DNA of 32,000 bases from Xylanibacter ruminicola 23 (GTDB lineage Bacteria; Bacteroidota; Bacteroidia; Bacteroidales; Bacteroidaceae). This document shows positions 6,000 to 19,407 of the stretch, piece after piece. The notes under the pieces are model-generated. The model was given only the letters and a program-made list of their open reading frames with translations, was not told the DNA's origin and made no database searches. The stretch covers positions 2,310,001-2,342,000 of the forward strand of contig NC_014033.1 of the NCBI RefSeq assembly GCF_000025925.1. The letters run 5' to 3'. The first letter of the stretch is position 1; every line of letters starts with the position of its first letter. Both the position numbers and the translations under genes were made by a program.

Positions 6000-6028
6000 C
6001 ACACAGAAATAAAAAAAATATCGCAAAA

Positions 6029-7213
6029 ATGAAAGAATTAGCACTCAAGTACGGATGTAATCCCAATCAGAAGCCCTCGCGCATTTTCATGACCGAGGGT
6101 GAGCTACCTATCGAAGTCATCAACGGTCGTCCTGGATATATCAATTTCCTCGATGCTTTCAATGCCTGGCAGCTTGTTAAGGAGCTGAAGGCTGCTACCG
6201 GTCTGCCTGCAGCAGCTTCGTTCAAGCACGTTAGCCCTGCCGGTGCTGCAGTTGGTCTGCCTCTGAGCGACACACTGAAGAAGATCTACTTTGTAGATGA
6301 CGTGAAGGACCTTGATGAGAGCCCCATCGCTTGTGCTTATGCACGTGCCCGTGGTGCCGACCGCATGTCGAGCTATGGCGACTTTGTAGCTCTGAGCGAC
6401 ACCTGCGATGCTACCACCGCCAAACTGCTGAAGCGTGAGGTGAGCGATGGCGTGATTGCGCCTGATTTTACACCTGAGGCTATCGAGATACTGAAAGATA
6501 AGCGTAAGGGTACCTACAACGTGATTAAGATTGATCCTAACTACGTACCCGAGCCTATCGAGCGTAAGCAGGTATTCGGCATCACCTTCGAGCAGGGTCG
6601 TAACGAGATTAAGCTCGACGACGATGCACTCTTCGAGAACATGCCTACACAGAATAAGACCTTTACTGCCGAGGCTAAGCGCGACCTGATTATCGCACTT
6701 ATCACCCTGAAATATACTCAGTCTAATTCAGTTTGCTATGTAAAGGATGGTCAGGCCATTGGTATCGGAGCTGGTCAGCAGAGCCGTATCCACTGCACAC
6801 GCCTGGCTGGTAACAAGGCTGATATCTGGTGGCTGCGCCAGCATCCAAAAGTGATGAATCTGCCTTTCATCGACAATATCCGCCGTGCTGATCGCGATAA
6901 CACCATCGACGTATATATCTCAGAGGACCACGATGATGTACTGCGTGATGGCACCTGGCAGCAGTTCTTTAAGGAGAAGCCCGAGGTGCTGACGATGGAA
7001 GAAAAGAAGGCATGGATAGCTCAGAACACCAAGGTGGCTCTGGGTAGCGACGCTTTCTTCCCCTTTGGCGACAATATCGAGCGTGCTCATAAGAGCGGCG
7101 TAGAGTTCATTGCTCAGGCTGGTGGCTCAGTTCGCGACGACAATGTAATTGAGACTTGCGATAAGTATGGTATCGCAATGGCGTTTACTGGTGTACGTCT
7201 GTTCCATCATTAA
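6029..7213 (+). CDS. purH: AICAR transformylase (PurH C-terminal domain only; no MGS-like IMP cyclohydrolase domain)
   Basis: The 394-aa ORF begins at the AICARFT domain motif LKYGCNPNQ (compare LRYGENPHQ in PurH). It also has FKHVSPAGAAVG and SDAFFPF motifs and ends in FHH like PurH. Confidence 0.85.
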   Translation: MKELALKYGCNPNQKPSRIFMTEGELPIEVINGRPGYINFLDAFNAWQLVKELKAATGLPAAASFKHVSPAGAAVGLPLSDTLKKIYFVDDVKDLDESPIACAYARARGADRMSSYGDFVALSDTCDATTAKLLKREVSDGVIAPDFTPEAIEILKDKRKGTYNVIKIDPNYVPEPIERKQVFGITFEQGRNEIKLDDDALFENMPTQNKTFTAEAKRDLIIALITLKYTQSNSVCYVKDGQAIGIGAGQQSRIHCTRLAGNKADIWWLRQHPKVMNLPFIDNIRRADRDNTIDVYISEDHDDVLRDGTWQQFFKEKPEVLTMEEKKAWIAQNTKVALGSDAFFPFGDNIERAHKSGVEFIAQAGGSVRDDNVIETCDKYGIAMAFTGVRLFHH

Positions 7214-7239
7214 ACATTAAACATTAAACATTAAACATT
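7208..7239. repeat. Tandem heptanucleotide repeat (cattaaa) x4 plus a partial unit
   Basis: Perfect units lie at 7208-7214, 7215-7221, 7222-7228 and 7229-7235, followed by catt. The repeat overlaps the purH stop codon (7211-7213) and ends 3 nt before ATG 7243. Confidence 0.95.
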
Positions 7240-7242
7240 TTA

Positions 7243-7431
7243 ATGGACGATTTTCAGAACATTCTTGAGAACGGCATCAACTTCGGACGTGGAGGTGACA
7301 AGCCGAAAGACGATGGCAAGGTAAAAACCAAGGCCAAAAAGAAAAAGTATATCACTGGTGCTCATGGTAGTGGCTCTGCAAGGCAGAAAGCCAAATACCG
7401 TGAGCAACGGGCAAACAGACATAAGAAATAA
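7243..7431 (+). CDS. Small Lys/Arg-rich hypothetical protein (62 aa)
   Basis: The ORF is packed between the purH-like gene (29-nt gap) and the GH53 gene (21-nt gap) on the same strand. It is highly basic (KVKTKAKKKKY, RQKAKYREQRANRHKK). I recognise no family. Confidence 0.35.
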   Translation: MDDFQNILENGINFGRGGDKPKDDGKVKTKAKKKKYITGAHGSGSARQKAKYREQRANRHKK

Positions 7432-14602: not shown

Positions 14603-14965
14603 TTACTCGCCAAAAGTTGCATTATATGCATTTTTAACATCTTCTAACGTGATGCCTAACAGCTGCATCTGGCGGAATAATTCTGGCAGTCGCTCTTTCA
14701 CGAACTCCTGCTTGCGCGCCTTCAGAATCTGCTGTTTGGCACCTGGAGTAACAAAGTATCCCAGTCCACGCTTGTTGTAGATGATTTCCTCGCGTGCCAA
14801 CTGTTCATAGGCTTTTACAGCGGTATTAGTATTCACCTCGAGCAGCACGGCATACTCACGTACGCTGGGGATGCGATCATCGTCTTTATATACACCCGAG
14901 AGGATCTCCTCGCACAGCCTGTCGGCCATCTGGATGTAAATCGGTTTATCATTTGTAAAAGTCAT
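14603..14965 (-). CDS. GntR-family transcriptional regulator, YtrA-like short subfamily
   Basis: The 120-aa ORF has a winged HTH (IPSVREYAVLLEVNTNTAVKAYEQLAREEIIYNKRGLGYFV) followed by only a short helical tail. Confidence 0.85.
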   Translation of the reverse strand: MTFTNDKPIYIQMADRLCEEILSGVYKDDDRIPSVREYAVLLEVNTNTAVKAYEQLAREEIIYNKRGLGYFVTPGAKQQILKARKQEFVKERLPELFRQMQLLGITLEDVKNAYNATFGE

Positions 14966-15794
14966 AATTCAACCACTTATTAGTTATTAATTCAAATCCT
15001 TTGAAGATACGGAACGATAACCAGTAATTTACAACAGAGAAGACAGCGAAGAATGCTGTAAGTACATAGGTCATGGCACCAACCCCCTCTTCCATCACAT
15101 CAGCTGTATAGTAAGTATAAAACATGCTTCCGCCATGATGACGCTTAAACCATACAAATGCTGTAATGCCTGCCACAAGTACAATGCTACTGATTACGAA
15201 TGCATACTTGCGGAACAGCGTGCCACCAAGGGTATAGAAAGAATGCAACCATACGAGTCCACTCACCAGAAATGCCAGAGACATCAGGCGATAACCCAAT
15301 GAATGATATGAACTTATACCATCAAATGTCATCATCTTAACCACTTCCGGAAAAACAAACGAATTCCACGAATCACCATAGAACAGAGCACGGAACACTA
15401 CACGCAGCGTATCGCCTACGATAAACGACAGGTGCATCGTCAGGAATCCACATACAGTAGAGAATATGGTGGCTGCCAGAAACTTCTCTAAGTTGGTAGC
15501 AGGCAGCATCAGGAATGCCTGGCGATTTGGTTTCTTATCCAGCTCGACAAACAGGTTACAAATACCTGCCACTACACCAATAATGATGAAAACCACAAAG
15601 AATCCAGCCAGGCCACCAGTATGGGTTCCTACAGGTTCTGTAGAACGGAATATGCCCAACACCATCATCTCCCCCAAGAAAACACCCAGTATGAGTGTCA
15701 AGGCCCACATCAGCTTCGAGTGCATGTTTACACTGATCATCCAGCGCAAAGCCTTTCCAAATCTATTAATATCGAAACTATTCATAACTTTCAA
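14949..15794 (-). CDS. Six-TM membrane protein of unknown family, putative permease partner of the ABC ATPase
   Basis: The 281-aa ORF has about 6 hydrophobic segments. It is a paralog of the upstream gene, sharing motifs INRFGKALRW, LMLPATNLEKFL and VNYWLSFRIF. Confidence 0.7.
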   Translation of the reverse strand: MKVMNSFDINRFGKALRWMISVNMHSKLMWALTLILGVFLGEMMVLGIFRSTEPVGTHTGGLAGFFVVFIIIGVVAGICNLFVELDKKPNRQAFLMLPATNLEKFLAATIFSTVCGFLTMHLSFIVGDTLRVVFRALFYGDSWNSFVFPEVVKMMTFDGISSYHSLGYRLMSLAFLVSGLVWLHSFYTLGGTLFRKYAFVISSIVLVAGITAFVWFKRHHGGSMFYTYYTADVMEEGVGAMTYVLTAFFAVFSVVNYWLSFRIFKGFELITNKWLNYDFYK

Positions 15795-16591
15795 ATGTTT
15801 ACAAATTTACCAATGTTCTGAGTGCGGCAGAAAATCCTGTACGACAACCAGTAGTTAACGATGGCCCAAATGCCGTAAACGGCATCAGAGATATGAAGCA
15901 GCGTAATAGCATCACCGTGAATCATATCAAACTGATTTTCGTAAGAAATAGGGAACAACCATGTTTGTACCATCGACAAGAAGATGAGCACCAATAAGGT
16001 GAAAATCCACGAGTACTTGTGCGAACGGAAGAAGGTGGCACCAAGGGCGAAACACGACTGAAGCCAAAGAAACAAAATAATCAGGGCATTAATAACCGTA
16101 ACCTTCTTTGAGCCAATGGCTTCCCAATTAACAGTGAAAGGATTTAAGCGACCGAACAGAGCGCCTGTTACAGACTGCGGATTGTTACCTATCAGCCAGT
16201 TAAAAACATACTGCACCAAGTCGGCTCCAAAATAAGCTACAACTATAATACCTATTACAAAAATCCAAGTGGCATAGCGCATCAGGTATTTCTCGAAATT
16301 CGAGGCTGGCAACAACAACAGAGCCTGCATATCGTGTTTCCCTTTCATGCTGTTAAACATCATCGCTGGGCCTAAGGCTACTTGAATAAAAAACATCATC
16401 ACCACAACCACGCAACAAGGTTTATAACCTGTATCAGCACCTTTCAGCCAATAAAAGCTGGTAGTAAAAAACAGGAACACCAGCGTAAGAAACACAAACA
16501 TCTGGAGCAGCGAGCGCATGTAGTAGCTCTTGTCGTTAGTGAGCGACCAACGAGCCACCTTTGCAAACCTATGTATATTAAACTGTATCAT
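15791..16591 (-). CDS. Six-TM membrane protein of unknown family (paralog)
   Basis: The 266-aa ORF has about 6 hydrophobic segments and motifs IHRFAKVARW, LLLPASNFEKYL and VNYWLSYRIF. It overlaps the next gene by 4 nt (ATGA). Confidence 0.7.
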   Translation of the reverse strand: MIQFNIHRFAKVARWSLTNDKSYYMRSLLQMFVFLTLVFLFFTTSFYWLKGADTGYKPCCVVVVMMFFIQVALGPAMMFNSMKGKHDMQALLLLPASNFEKYLMRYATWIFVIGIIVVAYFGADLVQYVFNWLIGNNPQSVTGALFGRLNPFTVNWEAIGSKKVTVINALIILFLWLQSCFALGATFFRSHKYSWIFTLLVLIFLSMVQTWLFPISYENQFDMIHGDAITLLHISDAVYGIWAIVNYWLSYRIFCRTQNIGKFVNI

Positions 16592-16610
16592 AAGATTTAA
16601 TGTTTAATCT

Positions 16611-17426
16611 CTAAATTTTACCCTCGTTTACAGCATTAAACAGCAACTCCAAATTAACCTGAGTTTCAGCACTATCCTCCTTGCGTGGTGCAATCACAGC
16701 ATTACCCTGAAGCGAAGGCTCGGCATAAAGCACATCGTCCATCTCGGCAGGTGTGCGATACTCAAAAGTAAACTTCTCCTGGATATCAGCCACACTGGCA
16801 TTCAGCAACAGCTTCTGTGGACTCAAGATAAGGATATGATCCAACAGCGATTCCACATCGTGCACCTGATGGGTTGAGATTATCAGCGTGCGATCGCCAG
16901 TCATATACTGGGTAACCACCTTACGGAACTGACTCTTCGAAGGGATATCCAGTCCGTTGGTAGGCTCGTCCATCAGTAGCACACGGGTGTTGGTAGCCAA
17001 GGCAAAGGCCATAAACACCTTTTTCTTCTGTCCCATCGAGAGGGCATTCAGTTTCAGGTCGGTGGTCAGTTCAAAATCCTTCAGACAGCCCTCCAGAACG
17101 GTTGTGCTGAACAAGGGATAGAAGGGGCGGTTGATCTTTACATACTCATCGAGCGACATAGCGGGCAGGTCGAACTCCTCAGGAACGATAAAGATATCCT
17201 GCAGTGTTTCAGGGCGGCGCAGTTTGGTCTCGATACCATCAAAGCTTACAGTACCCTTCTTGGGGCGCAGCAGTCCAGCAATCAGGTAAAGCAGTGTACT
17301 CTTACCTGTACCGTTCTTACCCAGCAGACCATAAATATTATCCTGCTTCAGTTCCAGACTGAAATCATCGAATACCAGGTTCTTACCACCTGCGTACTTA
17401 AAACTGATGTTGTTTACCTCGATCAT
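16611..17426 (-). CDS. ABC transporter ATP-binding protein (YtrB-like) with a C-terminal extension of about 60 aa
   Basis: It has Walker A GKNGTGKST, a degenerate signature LSMGQKKK, Walker B LLMDEPTNGLD and an H-loop STHQ. Confidence 0.9.
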   Translation of the reverse strand: MIEVNNISFKYAGGKNLVFDDFSLELKQDNIYGLLGKNGTGKSTLLYLIAGLLRPKKGTVSFDGIETKLRRPETLQDIFIVPEEFDLPAMSLDEYVKINRPFYPLFSTTVLEGCLKDFELTTDLKLNALSMGQKKKVFMAFALATNTRVLLMDEPTNGLDIPSKSQFRKVVTQYMTGDRTLIISTHQVHDVESLLDHILILSPQKLLLNASVADIQEKFTFEYRTPAEMDDVLYAEPSLQGNAVIAPRKEDSAETQVNLELLFNAVNEGKI

Positions 17427-17464
17427 AATTCTATTTAATTTTAATGTTCAATGTTACGTGTTAT

Positions 17465-17488
17465 AGTGTACCACTTTAATAGTACACT
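17465..17488. promoter_or_regulatory. Candidate GntR/YtrA operator: inverted repeat AGTGTAC-N10-GTACACT
   Basis: The 7-bp perfect arms are 17465-17471 and 17482-17488. The site lies immediately downstream of the minus-strand -7 box and 39 nt upstream of the ATG of the ABC operon that encodes the GntR regulator. The GT..AC half-sites fit the GntR family. Confidence 0.5.
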
Positions 17489-17489
17489 G

Positions 17490-17497
17490 CAAAAGTA
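17490..17497 (-). promoter_or_regulatory. -7 promoter box (TActTTTG) for the ABC/GntR operon
   Basis: The plus strand reads caaaagta, which is tacttttg on the minus strand, 64 nt upstream of ATG 17426. Confidence 0.5.
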
Positions 17498-17598
17498 GAA
17501 TAAAAACAAATACGCTCCAAGCTTTTATGCAAAAATCTGCAATCTATTAACACTATTTAGCACTTCAACCCTCACGCGTACATAACTAATAAACAGGG

Positions 17599-17661
17599 AG
17601 ATAGTACGGCACTATCTATGAGATACTCGTAACTTATCTGGTAGATATCCGGCACTTATCT
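17599..17661. repeat. Three tandem 19-bp palindromic sites AGATA-N9-TATCT at an exact 22-bp period
   Basis: The sites are 17599-17617, 17621-17639 and 17643-17661. All six half-sites are perfect and every spacer is exactly 9 nt. Confidence 0.9.
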
Positions 17662-17678
17662 GCCCACGAAGTTACGGT

Positions 17679-17737
17679 TACTATTAATGGTAGCGATTGC
17701 TACATTTAATGGTAGCAAAAATTCCCATTAATGGGAA
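17679..17737. repeat. Three ATTAAT-centred palindromic sites at an exact 22-bp period
   Basis: The sites are tactattaatggta (17679-17692), ctacatttaatggtag (17700-17715) and the perfect 16-bp palindrome ttcccattaatgggaa (17722-17737). Their centres are at 17685.5, 17707.5 and 17729.5. Confidence 0.85.
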
Positions 17738-17750
17738 CAATGGCAGCACA

Positions 17751-17936
17751 GTGTAACACTGTAACATACGACAGGAGAGAGAAAAAATATGGTCAAGATA
17801 GAACAAGTAATAGCTTATAAGATTATTTATATATTATAATATATAAATAATTAATATATAATATTATTATAATAATAGATATTATACAACCATGACCAAA
17901 CTTTTTTTCGTTCCTGTCGTAAAATTAACGTTACAC
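17751..17936. repeat. 186-bp imperfect inverted repeat enclosing an extremely AT-rich palindromic core
   Basis: Arm pairs are gtgtaac (17751-17757)/gttacac (17930-17936), a perfect 10-mer tacgacagga (17767-17776)/tcctgtcgta (17912-17921), and tggtca (17790-17795)/tgacca (17893-17898). The core 17815-17886 has 70 of 72 positions A/T, with a perfect 30-bp palindrome (17822-17851) and a 16-bp palindrome (17862-17877). Confidence 0.9.
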
Positions 17937-17961
17937 TCTTGGTAGATTGAAATATTTTTTG

Positions 17962-17969
17962 TACCTTTG
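17962..17969 (+). promoter_or_regulatory. -7 promoter box (TAccTTTG) for the 470-aa P-loop gene
   Basis: The context is ttgtacctttgcag, 26 nt upstream of ATG 17995. Confidence 0.6.
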
Positions 17970-17994
17970 CAGTGTAATCTTAAAAGACTGAATA

Positions 17995-19407
17995 ATGACA
18001 AAAGAGACTAACTTAAATGACCGTTCAATCATCGAACGACAGATGCTATTCGCAGGTAAAGAAATCGAGAAGCTGATGGATGTATATCCCTGCTTACGCG
18101 AGGTGTGCAAGGGCCTTAAAACCGAGGCCTACCCTGCTGCTATGTTTGCATCGTCGGCCTTCCTGGGTACGCTGATGACACGTTGTACCTATCGTTTTTA
18201 CCATCGCCCTCAGGAGTTGCGTCGCCTCAACTATAGCGTGTTCATCATTGGCGACCCTGGTTCAGGAAAATCGTTTGTAACCAATCTCTACGAACTTTTA
18301 GCCGGTCCTATCCGCAAAGTATCTAAGGAGGGGCAGAATGCCGAGAATCGCTATCGTCGCAAATACAAGGAGTGGCTGGACAACGGACAGAAAGGCGATG
18401 GCCCCAAGAAGCCCCAGGTAATTATCCGTACCCACCCTGCCCGTACATCCAACAAGGTGTTTATCGAAGACATGAAGCATGCCGTTGAGATGGTGGATGG
18501 CCAGGAGATGCACCTGCACATGCTCTCGTTCGACACAGAGCTCGACAATGCCATCAATCAGCAGGGCGAGGCATGGAGCAACAAGACCTATCTGGAATTG
18601 AAGGCTTTCCACAACGAGGAGGATGGACAGTTCTTCTCGAACTACGACTCAGAGCTTTGCGACTTCAATGTGTTTTGGAACTTTGTTTATACAGGCACAC
18701 CCCGCGCTCTGAAAAACAAGGTGAATGCCAACAACGTAGGCAATGGATTCTCAACCCGACTGGCAGCTATTCCCATGCCCTCAACCCACTTCGAGATGCT
18801 GAAACGTGAGGAGTTGGAAGATGCGAACGTAGAGCCTGAGGAGCACAAAACCCTGCGCATGTGGGCCGAGCGATTAGACTCTACCCATGGCGAACTGCCC
18901 ATTGGCAAACTGGTAGAAAGCACCTACGAATGGGCCAAGGAGCACATGGAAGAAGCCGAGGAGGACCAGTCGAAAACCGACGAACTGTTGCTTAAGCGTG
19001 TACCCTACTATGGCATCGCCGTAAGCGTACCTTTCATTATGATGCGCCATTGGGATGAGTGGCAGCAGCACCACACCCTCACTCTCGACGACACCGACCT
19101 GTACTTGTGCCGTTTGGCCATGAACATCCAGTTCGCATGCCAGCGCCATTTCTTTGGCAAATACTGGGATTACTACTTTATGCAGCAGGCTAACTGCATT
19201 AGCTATCCCACCCGCAAGCGCCACACCAAACTGATGCGTTCGCGTTACAGTGTTCTACCTGATGAATTCAGCGTGCCTTCCATGCAGATATTCCTAGGCG
19301 TGTCCCAGCGTACCGCCGAAAAGATGATAGAGCGCTGGCTCAACGATGGCTACATCAAGCGCATAGAACCCGGCAGGTACCAGAAATTATATCTCGAGCT
19401 AACATAA
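17995..19407 (+). CDS. Orphan P-loop NTPase with a C-terminal winged-helix-like domain (family uncertain; possibly DUF3987/SF3-helicase-like)
   Basis: This 470-aa ORF has its own promoter. It has Walker A GDPGSGKS (aa 86-93), a candidate Walker B LHMLSFDTE (aa 174-182), and a C-terminal HTH-like segment FLGVSQRTAEKMIERWLNDGYIKRIEPGRYQK. The ORF call is solid; the functional assignment is tentative. Confidence 0.75.
   Translation: MTKETNLNDRSIIERQMLFAGKEIEKLMDVYPCLREVCKGLKTEAYPAAMFASSAFLGTLMTRCTYRFYHRPQELRRLNYSVFIIGDPGSGKSFVTNLYELLAGPIRKVSKEGQNAENRYRRKYKEWLDNGQKGDGPKKPQVIIRTHPARTSNKVFIEDMKHAVEMVDGQEMHLHMLSFDTELDNAINQQGEAWSNKTYLELKAFHNEEDGQFFSNYDSELCDFNVFWNFVYTGTPRALKNKVNANNVGNGFSTRLAAIPMPSTHFEMLKREELEDANVEPEEHKTLRMWAERLDSTHGELPIGKLVESTYEWAKEHMEEAEEDQSKTDELLLKRVPYYGIAVSVPFIMMRHWDEWQQHHTLTLDDTDLYLCRLAMNIQFACQRHFFGKYWDYYFMQQANCISYPTRKRHTKLMRSRYSVLPDEFSVPSMQIFLGVSQRTAEKMIERWLNDGYIKRIEPGRYQKLYLELT

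Follow-up and report, generated by a model that had tools for sequence, protein, structure and literature searches.

Genes and elements of the divergent intergenic region

The window analysed here, a stretch of 32,000 nucleotides whose positions are used throughout, is chromosomal DNA of Xylanibacter (Prevotella) ruminicola. Strain D31d matched it at 99% protein identity, nucleotide identity in the X. ruminicola comparison was 94% across 9.5 kb, and the context of the locus was chromosomal and syntenic in four X. ruminicola genomes. A 568-bp divergent gap (17427-17994) separates an ABC-transporter/GntR (YtrA-like) operon on the minus strand (14603-17426) from a plus-strand gene (17995-19407) whose 470-aa product, presumed to be the initiator, is a DUF3987/MCM-like AAA+ helicase-like protein with a winged helix at its C-terminus. 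Every other gene tested in the window was a housekeeping gene, and the 32 kb held no integrase, transposase, tRNA, Rfam RNA or par gene; a known RNA or tRNA at the locus was accordingly rejected, as none matched. A search of 17427-17994 for the DnaA box TTATCCACA with up to one mismatch found no copy. A chromosomal oriC was dismissed, given this lack of DnaA boxes and a context that varied between Prevotella lineages. Since no primase domain, integrase, att sites or DnaA box was found at the locus, an active replicon amid these housekeeping genes would be unusual.

From left to right, the gap holds the −7 box of the ABC operon with a GntR-type repeat, an iteron array, one plus-strand copy of the motif CCACGAAGTTACGG (17664-17677), the ATTAAT triplet, a 15-bp palindrome, a left inverted arm, an all-A/T core, a right inverted arm and the −7 box of the helicase-like gene. 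At the left end, the inverted repeat AGTGTAC-N10-GTACACT (17465-17488) adjoins a minus-strand Bacteroidota −7 box, TACTTTTG (17490-17497); the two probably serve the ABC-transporter/GntR operon as autoregulatory operator and as promoter, and they are unrelated to the ATTAAT sites. The Bacteroidota −7 promoter consensus is TAnnTTTG, and at the right end the helicase-like gene has its own box of this type, TACCTTTG (17962-17969, plus strand); GTACCTTTGCA was invariant in the alignment of relatives (A2).

The first of the two triplets in the original prediction, of GATA type, is real. It consists of three 17-bp GATA-N9-TATC iterons on the plus strand (17600-17660) with a 22-bp period, namely GATAGTACGGCACTATC at 17600-17616, GATACTCGTAACTTATC at 17622-17638 and GATATCCGGCACTTATC at 17644-17660, and the proposed offset of 33.5 bp holds between the last of their centres (17652) and that of ATTAAT site 1. 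The GATA and ATTAAT families both comprise three sites at a 22-bp period, with the A/T core 70 bp and the gene 260 bp downstream of the phased repeats. The motif CCACGAAGTTACGG, single in the window, occurred in 2-3 copies, 22-23 bp apart, in the related loci L001, L021 and L012 (by-eye count). The hexamer TGGTAG was considered as a link between the ATTAAT sites and the iteron spacers and rejected as non-specific, being enriched across the whole 32 kb (29 occurrences against 14.4 expected, matched in 0 of 100 shuffles; mainly on the plus strand).

Beyond the ATTAAT triplet, the further palindrome that had been predicted, ACAGTGTAACACTGT, was found at 17748-17762 and is self-complementary at 14 of 15 positions. 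It overlaps the outer extension of a long inverted repeat, in which TGTAAC pairs with GTTACA near 17928-17933. The repeat is formed by a 40-nt left arm (TACGACAGGAGAGAGAAAAAATATGGTCA..., 17767-17806, plus strand) and a complementary right arm (...TGACCAAACTTTTTTTCGTTCCTGTCGTA, 17882-17921, minus strand), which enclose an A/T core (17807-17881), a candidate DNA-unwinding element. The all-A/T run at 17822-17886 was the only such run in the window, and the segment 17745-17935, taken as single-stranded DNA, folded into one long hairpin (-29 kcal/mol, z = -6.8). An invertible promoter between the arms was rejected on inspection, as a pure A/T core cannot contain the G-bearing TAnnTTTG box. By eye, each arm seemed to hold two G(A/T)CA heptamers 22 nt apart (TACGACA ... 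ATGGTCA), as did the arms of locus L011 (TACGACA ... TACGTCA; by-eye count); on this heptamer spacing, a two-turn period may run through the whole region.

Sites, conservation and movement of the ATTAAT module

The ATTAAT triplet proved to be exactly as described in the original prediction in its coordinates, symmetry centres (17685.5, 17707.5 and 17729.5) and period. The exact heptamer TTAATGG recurs at 17684, 17706 and 17728, a period of exactly 22 bp. Site 1 (GTTACTATTAATGGTAGC, 17677-17694) is an 18-bp imperfect palindrome whose inner part, TACTATTAATGGTA (17679-17692), is self-complementary at 12 of 14 positions. Site 2 (GCTACATTTAATGGTAGC, 17699-17716), with inner part CTACATTTAATGGTAG (17700-17715; 12/16), is the most conserved of the units, and its asymmetry is itself conserved, reading CATTTAATGG and not CCATTAATGG. 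Sites 1 and 2 can be extended to 18-mers of the form G(T/C)TAC...GGTAGC. Site 3 (17721-17738) contains the perfect 16-bp palindrome TTCCCATTAATGGGAA (17722-17737; 16/16), with an A5 tract ahead of it. When the 568-bp intergenic region was shuffled with dinucleotides preserved, only 1 of 5000 shuffles contained any equally spaced exact 7-mer triple (periods 10-40), and the TTAATGG triple was the sole such triple in the 32-kb window. The site 3 form TTCCC-N6-GGGAA would be expected 0.01 times per window. A chance origin of the triplet was ruled out by these shuffles together with the conservation of the sites.

Conservation was examined in the upstream regions of about 25 Prevotellaceae loci encoding 470-aa relatives (labelled L), many of them from metagenome contigs. 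The module was present with unchanged 22-bp spacing in the clade of the window (L005, L006, L007, L018 and L036) and also in L019 and L020, whose proteins are 85% identical to that of the window. Site 1 occupied the same position in all seven of these loci with an identity of 15-18 of 18, and site 2 was identical at 18 of 18 positions in L005, L006, L007, L036, L019 and L020, with near-copies in L001 and L011. Between the window and L020, the 62-bp module was identical at 54 of 62 positions, making it the best-conserved noncoding segment against 55-72% for the others; synonymous sites of the gene were saturated against L019/L020 (dS about 1.7-2.3). The form TTCCC-N6-GGGAA recurred only at the equivalent place in relatives, including L011 and L024 (64% protein identity), and in about 0.6 Mb of Prevotellaceae DNA searched it and TTAATGGTAGC were confined to these upstream regions. 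Judged from these alignments, the module is conserved under selection, and the lack of conservation in relatives that the original prediction had named as counting against it does not apply. Part of the identity across lineages could reflect recent exchange rather than long-term constraint. A phage origin of the sites was rejected, as none of 13 viral contig matches to GCTACATTTAATGGTAGC lay near a homologue of the 470-aa protein; by eye they appear to fall within coding sequence, and they were taken as unrelated chance matches.

The conserved unit also varied between lineages in place, orientation and presence. In L001 and L023, the module stood at the far, distal end of the iteron array, and in L011 and L024 it was inverted relative to the gene, keeping its backbone, TTGCTAC...TAGCAAAAATTCCC-N6-GGGAA, and its 22-bp spacing. 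About half of the relatives lacked it, and whatever the core does can therefore proceed without it. In L013 it was gone by a clean indel, and in L008 it was absent. The helicase gene of L013 (RUG765 MAG, 6001-7360) was also frameshifted, showing an ORF of 63 aa and a match shortened by 50 nt, through either decay of this copy or faulty assembly.

The same comparison bears on whether a dimeric transcription factor acting on the ABC operon, the helicase-like gene or both uses the sites as ordinary operators. Palindromes of 16-18 bp are shaped like operators of HTH dimers, these ones lie in a divergent intergenic region, and the ABC operon encodes a GntR-family regulator. However, the module followed the helicase gene and not the flanking genes: it was present in L001 and L023, where the ABC operon is absent and the upstream neighbour is HigB/HigA, and missing in L013 and L008, which keep the ABC operon. 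This pattern does not support control of both divergent genes, for which the original prediction had allowed, and an operator of the neighbouring GntR/ABC operon was rejected since module and operon do not co-occur in relatives. The sites also lie far from both promoters, at 225-310 bp from the helicase start codon, beyond the AT-rich element, and about 190-250 bp from the ABC −7 box; the GntR-type operator is the other inverted repeat, at 17465-17488; and the module tolerates inversion and relocation. The locus therefore failed as a transcription-factor operator array, and we regard this explanation as quite improbable.

It is hardly credible that the sites act as RNA or DNA hairpins, such as an intrinsic terminator on the minus strand protecting the ABC operon. 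On the minus strand, site 3 is followed by TTTTT and was flagged as terminator-like, but its stem is only 7 bp with three G-C pairs, sites 1 and 2 have no T-run, and Rfam gave no match. The palindrome of site 3 was moreover broken, to the degenerate form ATTAAGGGTA, in L005, L019 and L020 while the module was retained, and an intrinsic terminator at site 3 was rejected because its hairpin is not conserved.

The helicase-like gene and its origin-like upstream regions

The 470-aa protein gave only a sub-threshold DUF3987 match in Pfam. Its homologues number thousands in Prevotellaceae, some of about 470 aa and others of about 800 aa, the latter with an additional N-terminal BT4734-like (PF08800) primase domain that the 470-aa protein lacks. 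An AlphaFold (AF2) model built from 42 homologues had a mean pLDDT of 86. Its best fold matches in the PDB were MCM2-7 and archaeal MCM (E = 3.5e-5, TM about 0.35-0.40), and its best viral matches were phage DUF3987 primase-helicases (E = 7.7e-13, TM 0.56). The last 45 residues were winged-helix-like, with an H-H-H-E-E unit at 427-464 and a weak match to the AbiEi wHTH. A Walker A motif (G86-S93), a D180/E182 pair and R255 were invariant, and dN/dS against relatives was 0.04-0.08. According to the model, the protein is an AAA+ helicase with a C-terminal winged helix, its helicase function being predicted. DUF3987 domains were earlier predicted to be helicases of mobile-element replication (PMC5862659). 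Searches with the 470-aa protein by tblastn against 72,556 plasmids and against a phage collection returned no match, nor did those of PHROGs and NCBIfam; a sequence search of the PDB found nothing, with no detectable similarity to solved Rep or Cch structures.

Upstream of these genes, all loci that reached far enough showed an all-A/T run between inverted arms of 35-45 nt. The run measured 53-68 nt in nearly all complete upstream regions; the exception, L023, measured 36 nt when the same rule was applied. The arms had lineage-specific sequences in which both sides were altered in concert (for example TACGACAGGAAG...TGGTCA, CGTAACTTTGGACAAAAA...ACGTCA and TTACGACAAA...TACGTCA), and arms and iterons co-varied with the protein lineage. 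The iterons appeared in the forms GATA/TATC, GATT/AATC and GAGA/TCTC, in 2-5 copies, and their variants, including GATTG..AATC in L012, GAGAAACGGCCTCTC in L025 and GATTCTACGG in L008, all kept the 22-bp period. The same plan was found upstream of the 800-aa primase-helicase relatives, with other short arm repeats (GCACCA, GTGCACCAGTG and CTACAT). Between near-identical strains, GATA iterons varied by exact 22-bp units: the window, L005 and L018 had three, L006 and L007 (5630-5680 in both) as well as L036 had two, and L013 and L001 had four to five. The metagenome contigs of L056, L061, L021 and L022 began within or just past the all-A/T palindromic run, which suggests that this run breaks short-read assemblies.

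From one Prevotella lineage to another, the helicase unit lay in unrelated or different contexts of housekeeping genes. Homology between the window and L001 stopped at the stop codon, and no target-site duplications or terminal repeats were seen in this comparison. One identical 471-aa protein (P0037) had two left neighbourhoods (L058 2710 and L060 184) that diverged about 290 bp upstream of the gene; the point of divergence coincides with the edge of the origin-like region and may mark a breakpoint of rearrangement or mobility. The comparison of junctions at the L001 end and left of P0037 is thus suggestive of mobility and not decisive. The unit also stood amid toxin-antitoxin or defence-type genes in L001 (4824-5489 and 7518-8160), L040 (13311-14730) and L037 (663-5421), these neighbours being HigB/HigA, HepT/MNT, YafQ, Gp49/HTH, Fic/RhuM and a DUF1016 nuclease, and in L008 a 3-kb insertion lay between the helicase unit and a GH3 gene. 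The surroundings of the unit in other lineages look like an integration hotspot.

Resolvase res sites comprise three sub-sites and plasmid centromeres are repeat arrays, and three phased dimer sites resemble both. A res-like recombination site or a centromere-like site, served by a recombinase or partition protein encoded elsewhere and perhaps moving or segregating the 1.8-kb unit, would accord with the different chromosomal contexts of the unit and with the two left junctions of one identical protein. We nevertheless consider this very improbable, as no recombinase, ParA or ParB gene was found in the window or adjoining the unit of any relative, the shared unit in the window is not bounded by the module, the GATA iterons lying farther out, and neither target-site duplications nor terminal repeats were seen.

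The layout was compared with known helicase-linked origins. The origin of SaPI, the Staphylococcus aureus pathogenicity island, has an AAA+ helicase-initiator with a C-terminal WHD, and oppositely directed iterons flank its AT-rich region (PMC9371898); the helicase of the SaPI Rep/SCCmec Cch class is SF3 or MCM-like SF6, with the primase fused or separate (PMC9371898, PMC5862659). Like these systems, the present locus places an origin-like region next to a gene whose product has a predicted MCM/DUF3987-like fold with a C-terminal wHTH, and its arms are in opposite orientation around the A/T core. Unlike them, it has the origin-like region upstream of the gene and not downstream, it carries two to three extra families of 22-bp-phased sites, and its solitary gene sits among housekeeping genes of a Bacteroidota host with no integrase, packaging or regulatory module. 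The ATTAAT triplet is one-sided, outside the SaPI-like arms and A/T core, and has no counterpart in the SaPI model. Membership of an excisable island was not borne out, as there was no integrase, transposase or tRNA in the 32 kb, and no att sites or terminal repeats.

Iteron theta plasmids such as R6K, F, RK2, pPS10 and pSC101 carry direct repeats of about 17-22 bp at 22-bp spacing by an AT-rich region and rep, and added inverted repeats and auxiliary host-factor sites are common at their origins. The locus shares with them helically phased direct repeats beside an AT-rich region and a rep-like gene. It differs from them in its initiator candidate, a helicase-type AAA+ protein and not a WH-WH Rep monomer, in its chromosomal location without a DnaA box, and in the lack of a match among the 72,556 plasmids. 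Archaeal origins have inverted ORB elements around a DUE beside orc1/cdc6, which encodes an AAA+ protein with a winged helix; here the likeness is in layout only, as the protein is helicase-like (MCM/DUF3987) and not Orc1/Cdc6, and the host is bacterial. By analogy, the region resembles a self-loading-helicase origin of SaPI/SCCmec type combined with an iteron array, and replication from it is predicted.

A proposed second DNA-binding specificity at an origin-like region

We propose that the ATTAAT module is an optional cis-element, independent of position and orientation, which provides three putative dimer sites in an origin-like region for a binder that is not lineage-specific; we put the probability of this reading at roughly one half. 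The origin-like control region would be inherited with the downstream DUF3987/MCM-like helicase gene, and the module would belong to that region. The all-A/T run, as the likely unwinding element, would form its core, the flanking inverted arms could allow two helicase-initiator assemblies to load in opposite orientation, and the lineage-specific 22-bp iterons would stand beside the core. Within about 62 bp, the three dimer-type sites have their centres two helical turns apart, which would place all of them on one face of the DNA. We infer that the binder of the module is most likely a dimeric DNA-binding protein, which could be a host factor or be encoded elsewhere, and its role would lie in bending or organising the origin or in gating initiation; no candidate gene for such a binder adjoins the module. 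Because the sequence of the module does not track the protein lineage, as the iterons and arms do, a second DNA-binding specificity is the simplest explanation.

The original prediction had read the two triplets as two specificities assembling on one scaffold. The two families do behave as separate modules, the iterons being bound to the lineage and the ATTAAT sites gained, lost, moved and inverted independently. As to the proteins, its pairing of an initiator with another factor is favoured by the origin-like scaffold and the helicase-like gene, and its alternative, a partition protein with a regulator, is disfavoured by a window that has no par gene.

The main rival explanation, which we hold to be unlikely, is that the palindromes are bound by the dimeric or oligomeric DUF3987/MCM-like protein itself through its winged helix. 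In that case they would serve the initiator as secondary sites in autoregulation, in the control of copy number or in handcuffing, like the inverted repeats bound by Rep dimers in iteron plasmids. The protein has a detected C-terminal wHTH, whose recognition-helix region (QRxAEKMIERW), like the ATTAAT module, hardly varies between lineages; the module also shares the 22-bp phasing of the iterons, and in L019 and L020 the two arrays continue in phase, 22.5 bp apart (by eye). However, about half of the lineages have the same conserved helix and no module, neither the GATA iterons nor the arms clearly resemble the half-sites in sequence, and the sites lie more than 220 bp from the promoter, past the AT-rich core, which makes direct repression unlikely.

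A bolder extension of the proposed second specificity, unlikely in our estimate, is that the unit of about 1.8 kb, made up of the origin-like region and the primase-less DUF3987 helicase gene, is no decayed island but a self-contained, selected chromosomal replication module, widespread in Prevotellaceae, that could fire locally on a trans signal. Such firing might over-replicate the region, provide a conditional second origin, or interfere with an invading phage or element. The signal would then be received at the ATTAAT module, as no other part of the unit is at once independent of lineage, portable and optional.

Among the uncharacterised replication-like genes of gut and rumen Bacteroidota, those for DUF3987 and BT4734-type primase-helicases rank with the commonest. 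No description of their origins or regulation was found in the searchable literature, and the literature on DUF3987, BT4734 and Prevotella with MCM-like or VirE proteins did not describe the present system; for a solitary, primase-less, strongly constrained helicase-like gene with its own origin-like region, the searchable literature likewise offered no description. The locus combines four kinds of element in a compact layout, namely arms with an all-A/T core, lineage-specific iterons, a separable accessory module and a helicase-like gene. If this layout is a functional origin, it would constitute a minimal Prevotella replicon, a useful genetic tool in a poorly tractable genus, and it would provide a handle on how chromosomal helicase-origin units are controlled.
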